Assembly: GCA_038858525.1 (NCBI GenBank)
Contig: JAWCFL010000035.1
Location: 1-16,951 of the forward strand
From: Candidatus Jordarchaeales archaeon
GTDB taxonomy: Archaea; Asgardarchaeota; Jordiarchaeia; Jordiarchaeales; Freyrarchaeaceae
Direction: 5' to 3'
Length of the DNA stretch: 16,951 nucleotides
Every line of letters starts with the position of its first letter. Within the stretch, counting starts at the first letter, position 1. Both the position numbers and the translations under genes were made by a program. Positions 1 to 8,100 of the stretch are shown here, one piece after another. The notes beneath the pieces were generated by a model. The model worked only from the letters and a program-made list of their open reading frames with translations, was not told the DNA's origin and did not search any database.

Positions 1-40
1 GAAGATTGCTGAGAGAGACATTGAGCTGAGTGAATCCTAA
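1..40 (+). CDS. Partial CDS, C-terminal end of an unidentified upstream gene (..KIAERDIELSES*)
   Basis: Frame 2 is open from the window edge to TAA at 38-40, followed by a structured UTR and U-tract. Frame 3 (RLLRETLS*, TGA 27-29) cannot be excluded. Confidence 0.4.
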   Translation, partial: KIAERDIELSES

Positions 41-49
41 ATTTTTCCA

Positions 50-99
50 GGGTTGGGATGACTCGTCTCCCAAAACGTTGCGGAGGCGGGAACCACCCC
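50..99 (+). promoter_or_regulatory. Putative SECIS element (eukaryote/Asgard type) in a 3' UTR
   Basis: AUGA (58-61), 10 nt, unpaired AAAA (72-75). CUCGUCUCC (62-70) pairs with GGAGGCGGG (82-90). GA at 90-91 is opposite the AUGA. Lower helix GGGUUGG (50-56) pairs with CCACCCC (93-99) with one mismatch. Lies between a stop codon and a U-tract. Confidence 0.5.
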
Positions 100-126
100 C
101 AGCAGGGGGATGCCCTCCTGAAAAAC

Positions 127-150
127 TTTTTCTTTCCCTTTTTTGTGTTT
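127..150 (+). terminator. Archaeal oligo-U terminator candidate
   Basis: TTTTTCTTTCCCTTTTTTGTGTTT downstream of the upstream CDS and hairpin, upstream of the comA promoter. Confidence 0.5.
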
Positions 151-175
151 GGGTGCCGTTTTACGGTCTTCGCTG

Positions 176-233
176 CATAAGCTTTTAAAGCGGTCCCTGT
201 TTGAACGTTAAGGGGAATTTGCCGGTTGGGTGA
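176..233 (+). promoter_or_regulatory. BRE/TATA promoter and SD for comA
   Basis: CATAAGC followed by TTTTAAAG (183-190); GGGTGA (228-233) 6 nt before ATG 240. Confidence 0.55.
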
Positions 234-239
234 ATATCT

Positions 240-1037
240 ATGTGTCCTCAGCTGTTTGAGCTTTCGCCTGTGGAGAGAGCGTTGAAGCCTAGGTTGTCAG
301 GTTTAACTTCCGTTATAGATCGAGGTATTAGCCCGTCCGGATTGCGTGAGCTGATGAATGTCGCCGGCGAGTACATTGACTTCTGGAAGTTCGGCTGGTG
401 CACTTGGCTCCTAATTCCTTTAAAGGCGGTTAAGGAGAAAATTGAGATTTGCAAGGAGTTTGACGTGAAAGTTATGCCTGGCGGCTCCAGCTTGGAAGCA
501 GCCTTCGCGAGGGGAAAGATCAAGGAGTTTTTAAGTTTCCTCAAAAAGCTCGGCTTCAGCTCGCTCGAGGTTTCTAATGGAATAATCGAAATGAACCTTG
601 AGGAGAAGCTCAAGCTTGTGCAAACCGCCAAGGACTTCGACTTCTACCCCGTAATCACCGAGGTTGGAAGGAAAAAGCCGGAGGAGGACGCCTCCCTCCC
701 CCTCTCAGAGAGAGTAGAGCTAATGAAGCGTGAGCTTGAGGCTGGAGCGGACTACGTCGTCGTTGAGGCTAGGGAGAGCGGGGTGGGGATAGGGCCCTAT
801 GACGCAAAGGGTGACGTTAAGAAGGACTTCGTCGAGTCCATAACACGAGAAATTCCGGTAGAAAAGATAATGTGGGAGGCTCCTTTAAAGTCTCAGCAGG
901 TTTGGCTGATAAAGCGTTTTGGTCCTAACGTTAACCTTGGAAACATTCAGCCTGACGAAGTTATTCCTCTGGAAACTCTTCGCCTCGGCCTTAGAGGCGA
1001 CACAATGCCAGACCTCCTCTTGAAGGTATCAAGATGA
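240..1037 (+). CDS. comA: Phosphosulfolactate synthase
   Basis: Motifs VIDRG, YIDFWKFGW, EVSNG, TEVGRK, VVEARESG, WEAP..QQVWLIKRFGPNVNLGN and LETLRLGLRGDT. Confidence 0.95.
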   Translation: MCPQLFELSPVERALKPRLSGLTSVIDRGISPSGLRELMNVAGEYIDFWKFGWCTWLLIPLKAVKEKIEICKEFDVKVMPGGSSLEAAFARGKIKEFLSFLKKLGFSSLEVSNGIIEMNLEEKLKLVQTAKDFDFYPVITEVGRKKPEEDASLPLSERVELMKRELEAGADYVVVEARESGVGIGPYDAKGDVKKDFVESITREIPVEKIMWEAPLKSQQVWLIKRFGPNVNLGNIQPDEVIPLETLRLGLRGDTMPDLLLKVSR

Positions 1038-5168: not shown

Positions 5169-8100
5169 TTAACAGAAGGCGAAGCGTTTCTCGACGTTTT
5201 TCAAGTTTTCGAGGTAATCATTCAAGGACTTTGCTGATAGCTCCTTACTTTTCCTAATGCTTTCGAGCGCCGCCACCAAGCTCTTAGCCATTTTGATGTT
5301 AGTGATTACTGGTATGTTGTACTCTGTCGCCTTCCGCCTTATCATGTACTCGTCTCTCATCATGTCAGCATACTTCTCAAGGGTGCCGGTTCTAGGTATA
5401 TTGATAACTAGGTCAATCTTTCTCTCAAGAATTAAGTCCCTTATATTGGGCTCCCTGTGAGGCTCGCTTATCTTGTAGACTACTTTCACGTCCCTTATTC
5501 CAGTTTCGGCAAGCGCCTCAGCGGTGTGCTCGGTGGCGTATATCTCGTAGCCCATATCCGCGAACTTCTTCGCTATAGGTGCTATTTCCTGCTTGAGCAT
5601 CCTGCCGCCGACAGTTACCAGTATGTTTCCTTTCTCTAGGGGAACTTCGAACTCGGCCGCTAGAAGCGCCTTTAAGAACGCCTCCTCTAGGGTATCGCCT
5701 AGACAGGCAACCTCACCCGTCGACATCATTTCTACACCGAGAACGGGGTCTGCCCCGTCAAGCCTCATGAATGAAAACTGAGGAACCTTAACTCCAAAGT
5801 GGGGAAGATGTCGTGGAGCGGCAACGTTAAGCTCCCTCAGCTTCTTTCCCAGCATGACCGGAACTGCTACATCCATCAAGTTGACTCCTATGGTCTTACT
5901 GACGTATGGCATAGAGCGGGACGCCCTCAAGTTACACTCTATAACGTACACCACTCCGTCCTTAACGAGGTACTGAATGTTAAATGGACCCTTTATTCTG
6001 AGGGATGAGGCTATTCTGCACGTGTAGTCCTCTATGGTTCTCTTCACGTTTTCAGTGAGGCTGAAGGGCGGTATAACCATTGTTGCATCTCCAGAGTGTA
6101 CGCCTGCATCCTCAACGTGCTCTATTATAGCGCCTATGAACGTGTCCTCCCCGTCGCTTACTCCGTCAACTTCGACTTCCCTAGCTCCCTCTATGAACTT
6201 CGAGATGACCACAGGGTGTTCAGGGGAAACCGATGAGGCTAAAACAAGGAAGTCTTCGAGTTGCTCCTCAGTGTATGCCACCCTCATTGCGGCGCCAGAC
6301 AAGACGTAGCTTGGACGCACAAGGACAGGGTATCCAACTTTTCTCGCGAACTCCTTTGCGTCATCCAGCGAGGCGAGCTTACTCCACGGTGGCTGCGGTA
6401 TACCGAGCGTCTCTAGGAGCGCGCTGAACTTGGCTCTATCCTCTGCGCGATCCACATCCTCCCCAGCTGTCCCCAGTATCCTAACACCAGTTTTGGCAAG
6501 CCTGTGAGCTATGTTATTCGGGATCTGTCCTCCAACTGAAACTATGACCCCCAACGGGTTCTCCTTCTCATAGATATCAAGAATCCTCTCAAAGGTCAAC
6601 TCCTCGAAGTAAAGTTTGTCACTTATGTCATAATCCGTGGACACTGTTTCCGGATTATAGTTTACAACTATAACCTTCTTCGCACCATTGTCTTTCAGGG
6701 CGAAGACGGTGTTAACGCAGCACCAGTCGAACTCAACAGAGCTCCCTATCCTATATGTACCAGCGCCCAAAACAATGACTTTTTCTTCTTCCTCCTCATC
6801 AAACACTCCGTCGTCCTCGTCTCCGCCGTATGTCACGTAGACATAGTTTGTCTTAGCAGGCCACTCAGCCGCTAACGTGTCAATCTGCTTAACTACGGGG
6901 ATTACCCCCAACCTCTTTCTGAGCTTTCTCACCTCAAGCTCTTCCATTCCAAAATAGGATGCTATCTGCTTGTCCGAGAAACCCAGCCTCTTAGCTCTTA
7001 AGATAAGGTCTTTCAATTCATCTTCGTCGAGGCGTTCTACTCCTACTTTGCCTGCTTCTTTCAGCTCCGCCTCCATGTTTATTACGTTCTTTATTTTATT
7101 GATGAACCACGGATCTATCCCGCTTAGCTCGTAAATTTTTTCAACGCTTAAACCATACTTTAAGGCTTTAACTATCTTGAAGAAGCGTTCATCAGTCGGG
7201 TTAGCGAGAACGTACTCTATGTGCTCTATTGGTTCAGGTTTTTCCTCGTCAATGTTCCCCACGAGACCGACTTTCCCTATGTCAAGCATTCTGACCGCTT
7301 TCTGTATTGCCTCTTCAAAGCAGCGCCCTATCGCCATAACCTCCCCGACGCTTTTCATCTGGGGCCCAATCTCGCGGCTCACATTGATGAACTTCTGTAA
7401 ATCCCAGCGGGGGAACTTCACGACAATATAGTCTAAGGCTGGCTCGAAACATGCTGTAGTAACCATGGTAACCTTGTTCATTAGCTCAGGCAACGTGTAA
7501 CCTATGGCCAGCTTAGCTGCTATGTATGCTAAGGGATATCCTGTAGCTTTCGACGCTAGAGCCGAGGAACGAGAGAGCCTAGCATTGATTTCTATAGCCC
7601 TAAACTCCTCGCTTCTAGGGTGAAGAGCATACTGAATATTGCACTCCCCAACTATTTGTAGATACCTCACCGCCTTTATCGAAGCCTCTCTTAGGAGGTG
7701 ATACTCCCTATTTGTGAGCGTCTGACTTGGTGCAACTACTATTGAGTCCCCTGTGTGTACCCCCATCGGGTCAACGTTCTCCATGTTGCACACTGTAATA
7801 CAGTTGTCCTCGTAATCCCTAACCACCTCATACTCTATCTCCTTCCACTTTCCAACATACTCCTCGATCAAGATCTGCCTGATCATGCTCTGTGCGAGTC
7901 CCCTGCTAGCTATCTCAACCAGCTCATCCGGGTTGTGCGCCACCCCTGAGCCCTTTCCTCCAAGCGTGTAGGCCACCCTCACTATAACAGGGTAACCTAT
8001 CTCCTCAGCTACTTTTAACGCCTCCTTAACTGACGTCGCAGGCGCGCTCTCTAAAACGGGCACACCAGCCTTTATCATGGCTCGCCTGAATAGTTCTCTA

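Follow-up and report, generated by a model that had tools for sequence, protein, structure and literature searches.

The stretch of DNA analysed here (the window; 16,951 nucleotides) is the whole of contig C35 of the assembly of a Candidatus Jordarchaeales archaeon, and it starts at the first base of the contig, inside an open frame. Using the exact ComA protein (240–1034) as the query, six hot-spring metagenome contigs were obtained that overlap the window with 99.8–99.98% identity over up to 7 kb and reach further upstream. In these contigs, the window is preceded by a divergent hdrA, vhuD, vhuG, vhuA and vhuU, in that order. The vhuD of this operon is of the Cys type, and vhuA encodes a 440-residue large subunit with a TAG stop, after which a vhuU of 48 codons comes next. 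The closest large-subunit loci are those of Candidatus Jordarchaeum sp. LHC_1308 (92% identity) and Jordarchaeia QC4 (86%), followed by J. madagascariense (72%) and a Freyarchaeia chromosome (69%). In the assembly itself the vhu operon is broken: contig C39 ends within vhuG and 1.7 kb are absent before C35, so that vhuA is missing entirely, vhuG in part and vhuU for the most part. Directly after the operon, homologues of comA and comB (PF02679 and PF04029; comB encodes 2-phosphosulfolactate phosphatase) occupy 240–1717 on the plus strand; to our knowledge, the Asgard archaeon that hosts them is not known as a methanogen. The features are summarized in Table 1.

Table 1. Features of the vhuU 3′ region and related elements. 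Positions are those of the window unless a contig is named.
Feature	Location	Strand	Basis
vhuU 3′ end: last 12 codons and TAA stop (38–40)	1–40	+	upstream contigs
vhuU, full ORF	metagenome contig L022, 9653–9801		identical in L023–L027
GGG, tentative 5′ strand of outer helix P1; partner CCC 113–115	50–52	+	RNAalifold (five orthologues), MFE of 38–150
UGG, 5′ strand of the 3-bp kink-turn C-stem; partner CCA 93–95	54–56	+	RNAalifold
Putative kink-turn bulge G57-A58-U59 with G60-A61; AUGA core (58–61) inside	57–61	+	sequence
Upper (non-canonical side) helix, 9 bp, 62–70/82–90	62–90	+	fold and RNAalifold
Apical loop, 11 nt, CAAAACGUUGC, begins CAAAA (A72–A75)	71–81	+	sequence, fold
AA facing G60-A61; proposed A61.A91 and G60.A92	91–92	+	orthologue alignment
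CCA, 3′ strand of the C-stem	93–95	+	RNAalifold
Side hairpin CCCCC-AGCA-GGGGG, 96–100/105–109	96–109	+	RNAalifold, MFE of 38–150
CCC, tentative 3′ strand of P1	113–115	+	RNAalifold, MFE of 38–150; weak
Oligo-T runs T5, T3 and T6, likely transcription stop of the vhu operon	127–144	+	read from sequence
comA (phosphosulfolactate synthase), next gene, context only	240–1037	+	PF02679
C20 SECIS, AUGA...GA; side hairpin UGGUGG/CCGCCA; outer helix GGGG/CCCC	~C20:23560–23640

The vhuU gene encodes a 48-residue [NiFeSe] hydrogenase peptide and reads M-V-E-V-D-P-K...R-A-Y-D-C-[TGA]-L-G-C-A-A-H...E-S-stop. The in-frame TGA is codon 22, which lies 45 nt upstream of the window start and 103 nt from the AUGA at 58–61. 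Comparison with an unsplit Cys-type homologue (YDC-U-LGCAAH here, YDPCLSCSTH in the homologue) aligns the TGA with the first Cys of the hydrogenase motif DPCxxCxxH, and the TGA thus stands for the first nickel-binding Cys, which is Sec in [NiFeSe] hydrogenases. The first-pass annotation of the window had proposed that a UGA-recoded selenoprotein gene ends just outside it; on metagenome contigs with 99.96–99.98% identity to the window, this gene proves to be vhuU, with its TGA at a Cys-homologous site.

The structured element begins at 50, 9 nt past the vhuU TAA, and is followed by oligo-T at 127–131 and 139–144, so the placement after a stop codon and before an oligo-U tract that had been described for it holds. 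The oligo-T region is likely, from its letters, to be the archaeal transcription stop of the operon. Within the element, AAAA (72–75) lies 10 nt downstream of the ATGA, and the AUGA, the AAAA loop and the 9-bp helix recognized at the outset are all present in the sequence; two of the helix pairs are G-U. The bulge GAU, the pairs G60.A92 and A61.A91 and the stem UGG/CCA fit a kink-turn by sequence and would form its core, in a geometry that we infer. On one side of this core would stand the 9-bp stem with its A-rich loop and on the other the C-stem, two pairs of which are invariant G-C and the third U-A in the alignment. The GC hairpin comes directly next, and the short P1, which possibly closes the element, is predicted to complete a three-way junction.

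Both vhuU and the element are found in four other Jordarchaeaceae and three Freyarchaeia-like genomes, and these seven orthologues, with compensatory changes in the upper helix, provide the conservation and covariation anticipated for a functional hairpin. In one congener (G002), the alignable part comprises window positions 1–116 only, and the remaining intergenic region has diverged. The AUGA core is kept in four of the five Jordarchaeaceae orthologues, the fifth having CUGA; over the wider set the core is AUGA, CUGA or UUGA, and the dinucleotide after the stem is AA or GA. Run unguided on the five close (Jordarchaeaceae) sequences, RNAalifold returned a short outer helix, the 3-bp stem, an unpaired G-AUGA, the 9-bp helix, an unpaired AA/GA and the side hairpin. 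Three pairs show compensatory changes, two of them in the upper helix. There, double changes that keep pairing affect two of the nine pairs (G-C to A-U twice, and U-A to C-G), and four of the nine vary on one side only. The apical loop ends in C or U throughout the five Jordarchaeaceae sequences (C81 here). The SECIS core (CUGA or UUGA) overlaps the vhuU stop in the sister genus and in the Freyarchaeia-like genomes, its UGA doubling as the stop codon, and the Freyarchaeia-like vhuU elements are of type II, with a CCC/GGG ministem after GAAA.

These alignments bear on how the element is drawn. It had initially been drawn as a single hairpin in which U63 is bulged, G90-A91 form tandem G.A pairs with the core and a 7-bp lower helix (50–56/93–99) closes the structure. 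In this one sequence G50–52/C97–99 and U54-G56/C93-A95 are indeed pairable, and the isolated segment 48–101 folds with part of the lower helix. However, U63-G89 is C-G in two of the five orthologues, so that U63 is paired rather than bulged. Two orthologues carry GA directly after a full 9-bp stem, in the same columns as A91-A92; because their G aligns with A91, it is A92 and A91 that face G60-A61 as partners, and the dinucleotide is A91-A92 instead of G90-A91. Of the lower helix, the three pairs 54–56/93–95 survive; beyond them, U53 and C96 are mismatched, and 96–99 belong to the conserved hairpin, in which 96–100 pair with 105–109 both in the minimum free energy fold of 38–150 and in the alignment fold. 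In addition, the SECIS of selD and of the C20 gene described below keep the 3-bp stem and the side hairpin without sequence to extend the lower helix. We therefore consider the single-hairpin drawing improbable.

The folding energy of the element is unexceptional. The isolated segment 48–101 folds modestly better than shuffles (z −2.2; 7 of 200 shuffles fold as well), and the segment 38–150 folds no better than shuffles (z −0.85). With such weak thermodynamics alone, the case rests on context and conservation. A check against eukaryotic covariance models, which had been suggested, gave no support: an Rfam scan of window positions 1–400 with E values up to 10 found no SECIS family and only two minus-strand chance matches. 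These observations, together with the oligo-T runs downstream, would suit a 3′ UTR structure of an ordinary kind, for stability or termination, that plays no part in recoding and whose AUGA/AA likeness is fortuitous. Against this, two families of the order share the core, the stem length and the A-rich loop despite divergence of the neighbouring intergenic sequence, and further copies of the design occur specifically downstream of genes that carry an in-frame TGA at Cys positions. The pattern is also nearly absent elsewhere in the genome. A strict lokiSECIS descriptor applied to both strands of the 2.09-Mb genome gave eight matches, compared with one in the reversed sequence; when the side hairpin was required as well, two matches remained, the window site among them, compared with none in the reversed sequence. 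With a covariance model based on the vhuU family, the window site reaches 91 bits; the model also recovers other SECIS in all 11 genomes of the order, and those of the C20-gene family in other genomes of the order. A fortuitous structure is accordingly very improbable.

The same design is present behind four other genes or gene ends of this genome: selD (C2), an ORF on C20, the end of hdrA on C1 and mvhD on C1. The C20 ORF encodes 113 residues (C20:23669–24010, minus strand; L128 270–611) and has a TGA in the context ..A-E-R-V-Y-S-U-R-S-S-R-I-E-V.. that is conserved in relatives. The protein matches no Pfam or NCBIfam family and is absent from the seven Asgard selenoprotein families of Huang, Xiao and Zhang 2024 (PMC11227280). 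A tandem of a second hdrA and a second-copy, Sec-type mvhD (V-V-G-U-H-V-G-E-C) occupies C1:83300–84940 on the plus strand, with a SECIS-like element after each (cores at ~84244 and ~84838); hdrA-vhuD pairs of Lokiarchaeota reportedly share one SECIS (Mariotti et al. 2016, PMC4989117).

The element belongs to the eukaryote-like class that earlier work has described in Asgard archaea; the initial call of a eukaryote/Asgard-type SECIS, distinct from the methanogen GAA/A form, was right and is not new. With the lokiSECIS of VhuU (Mariotti et al. 2016, PMC4989117) it shares a 3′ UTR position beside the stop codon of a VhuU that has ~50 residues and a single Sec, an AUGA before the stem, a stem of exactly 9 bp, an 11-nt loop with an A-rich start and an AA after the stem, the AA being a published variant of the Loki VhuU SECIS. 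The same text describes an overlap of the stop codon with the core in Loki VhuU.1, as in the sister genus and the Freyarchaeia-like genomes, whereas here the TAA is separate from the core. It also gives a conserved G at the last loop position, which is absent here, and A as the first loop base, which is C here; the Loki-specific G lies outside the broader Asgard model. That model, the type I eSECIS-like element of Huang et al. 2024 (PMC11227280), comprises a GA_[G/A]A core, a stem of 7–15 bp and a loop of 8–20 nt, all of which are found here. In addition, its frhA lower-stem motif [U/C]GG_C[C/U][A/G] corresponds to UGG_CCA in our sequence. The element carries every published structural feature of type I and of the lokiSECIS except the Loki-specific last-loop G. 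The supplementary alignments of PMC11227280 contain one Jordarchaeia genome with a Sec-type VhuU, and that survey reports that SECISearch3 failed on these elements too.

With the eukaryotic SECIS (RF00031, SECIS_1) the element shares the AUGA...AA...GA/AA kink-turn logic, the 3′ UTR position and the upstream UGA, but the eukaryotic stem is longer than the 9 bp here. Given this likeness and the lack of an RF00031 match at E 10, the element would have the function of a eukaryotic SECIS but falls outside that family by its model. The GAA_A SECIS of Methanococcales and Methanopyrus is likewise an archaeal 3′ UTR element that serves the orthologous vhuU, but it is built on a GAA/A asymmetric bulge below three consecutive G-C pairs, which is absent here. 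A GAA_A reading with G90-A91-A92 as the bulge could point to the GAA at 90–92, to the single A110 after the small hairpin and to the rare GAA_A-like folds that the survey (PMC11227280) noted downstream of Asgard SECIS, but its probability is close to nil, as no 3-bp GC stem directly follows the GAA, two orthologues have GGA or GGGGA at 90–92, the long lower stem would need 82–89, which covaries with 62–70, and the survey authors judge such folds probably non-functional.

On its anatomy, its gene context, the Cys-homologous TGA, the covariation and the recurrence behind other TGA genes, the segment 50–115 is very probably the SECIS of vhuU, the last gene of a vhuD-vhuG-vhuA-vhuU operon of Candidatus Jordarchaeum. 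Only the side hairpin adds to the Asgard SECIS descriptions in the main texts of the published accounts. The type I eSECIS-like model (PMC11227280) does not extend past the lower stem, Mariotti et al. 2016 (PMC4989117) make no mention of an adjacent side hairpin in the searchable text, and the words 'hairpin', 'junction', 'tetraloop' and 'GNRA' are absent from the searchable main text of both papers, one reference list aside.

Because the side hairpin is invariant among the five close vhuU orthologues, the decisive comparison is with other SECIS. The selD and vhuU SECIS were parsed by anchors in a script instead of a joint MAFFT alignment, and a hairpin was counted when it had at least 4 bp and started within 8 nt of the 3′ GA/AA of the core. 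An equivalent hairpin was found in 34 of 38 Asgard vhuU/selD SECIS, compared with 6.8 expected from dinucleotide shuffles of the same 45 nt, and it has 20 distinct stems; the 38 elements come from related genomes and these counts overstate their independence, but the compensatory changes are nonetheless plain, with 3–5 pair types at each of four inner positions. The selD 3′ UTR of this genome reads GAUGA, stem, GA, ACC and then CCCAC-AGCA-GUGGG, and the other selD of the order have side-hairpin stems CCCAU/GUGGG, CCACA/UGUGG and CCAUCC/GGGUGG. More distant Asgard families include stems such as GCUGC/GCAGC, GCUAC/GUAGC and GCCGU/GCGGC, with loops that end in GCA, GCAA, GCGA or GUGA. The 3-bp stem also covaries in selD SECIS (GGU/ACC, GGU/GCC and GGC/GCU). 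The outer helix P1 does not rise above chance (longest complementary run 4.9 nt, 4.3 nt in shuffles); it reaches 6–9 bp in some lineages and is only GGG/CCC here.

The arrangement recalls the k-junction, reportedly described by Wang and colleagues in 2014 as a kink-turn on a three-way junction, with the third helix beside the canonical stem on the non-bulged strand. An A.A pair at the 2b.2n position is also said to be a natural kink-turn variant. The element would resemble that structure in having a side hairpin beside the C-stem and an A.A pair; the outer helix is weak here. We tentatively propose that the functional unit of the Asgard SECIS is a kink-turn on a three-way junction, not the single hairpin of the published descriptions, and that the side hairpin, with its conserved GCA/GNRA-like loop, could dock a factor linking the SECIS to the Sec elongation factor; we regard this as plausible and short of probable. 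The hairpin may lend stability to the kinked junction or contribute to the binding surface.

Jordarchaeia is a published Sec-using class, and a selenocysteine machinery had been expected in this genome, which is 92.7% complete in 63 contigs. The expectation is borne out in part. The selD gene is of the Sec type, with a TGA at H-G-U-A-C-K (225 bits), and a PSTK-like gene matches the full-length PSTK model with 173 bits, below the curated cut-off, its Pfam match being KTI12. SepSecS and selB were not found in this assembly. A PF05889 match on C17 was rejected as SepSecS, being SepCysS-like by sequence reading, and the best selB match proved to be EF-1alpha. SepSecS scores above the cut-off in all five relatives searched, and selB does so in three; in a fourth, selB is truncated by the start of a contig. 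SepSecS and selB are neighbours in three relatives, and a fourth has both, at contig ends. In the relatives, selB-SepSecS lies ~21–25 kb from PSTK, and the PSTK contig of this genome (C18) ends 14 kb past PSTK. The missing selB and SepSecS are best read as an assembly gap, the genes being expected beyond the end of C18.

No tRNA-Sec was recognised in this genome or in the relatives. The Rfam model (RF01852) gave only sub-threshold matches in this genome and the five relatives, and these were rejected as a tRNA-Leu(UAA) with a D-loop intron and a tRNA-Met. Low-threshold aragorn produced about 1000 false calls, and the ten candidates that were checked matched no Rfam family. A tRNA-Sec has been reported in the congeneric MAG LHC_bin_1308 (Sun et al. 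2021). The genome contains 43 N runs of 92–100 nt, which were suspected of hiding tRNAs; the one checked (C18:24601–24699) is a scaffold gap, as its flanks are adjacent in four relatives. Aragorn finds only 11 tRNA genes in this genome, eight of them with introns. The tRNA-Leu(UAA) (C12:55570–55679, minus strand) has an insert in the D-loop region that is also present in three congeners. The tRNA genes of this lineage may therefore be rich in non-canonical introns.

The selD gene itself is interrupted, within the conserved S-D-V-Y|A-K-G, by an insert of 30 nt that includes an in-frame TAA (C2 ~6352–6386; L006 1747–1783). The insert is present in all 11 genomes of the order and is lacking in other Asgard selD. 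It folds like a bulge-helix-bulge intron in which GUGU/GCAU form the helix, ACA and AAG are the bulges and the inner hairpin covaries, and a cut after the second base of each bulge takes out exactly 30 nt and restores V-Y-A-K-G. In the only RNA run that contains selD of this organism, a contig halts exactly at the predicted 5′ cut (L006 1752) and continues with the letters of 1514–1543. The same run covers selD in pieces, with no cover of 1753–1856 and no contig spanning the insert or the spliced junction, and it gives only a weak hint of splicing; three DNA runs gave no cover.

In the proposed mechanism, the element would cause the UGA that lies 103 nt upstream to be decoded as selenocysteine, which would serve as the nickel ligand of the motif D-C-U-x-x-C-x-x-H. 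The kink-turn, as in the eukaryotic SECIS by analogy, may bring SelB with Sec-tRNA to a ribosome paused at the UGA, whether by direct contact or by way of an L7Ae-type adaptor. An adaptor other than SBP2 is proposed because, according to the literature, no SBP2 has been found in Asgard archaea.

As judged from its gene sequences, the vhu hydrogenase of the hot-spring Jordarchaeum is probably a [NiFeSe] enzyme, whose 48-codon vhuU would be missed or truncated by ordinary gene callers. If the side hairpin is needed for recoding, the published search models, which comprise the core, stem and loop only, would be incomplete, and the hairpin would offer a tangible starting point in the search for the archaeal SECIS-binding factor. 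With this element, the archaeal group closest to eukaryotes gains one more lineage-level example of a SECIS of the eukaryote-like kind.
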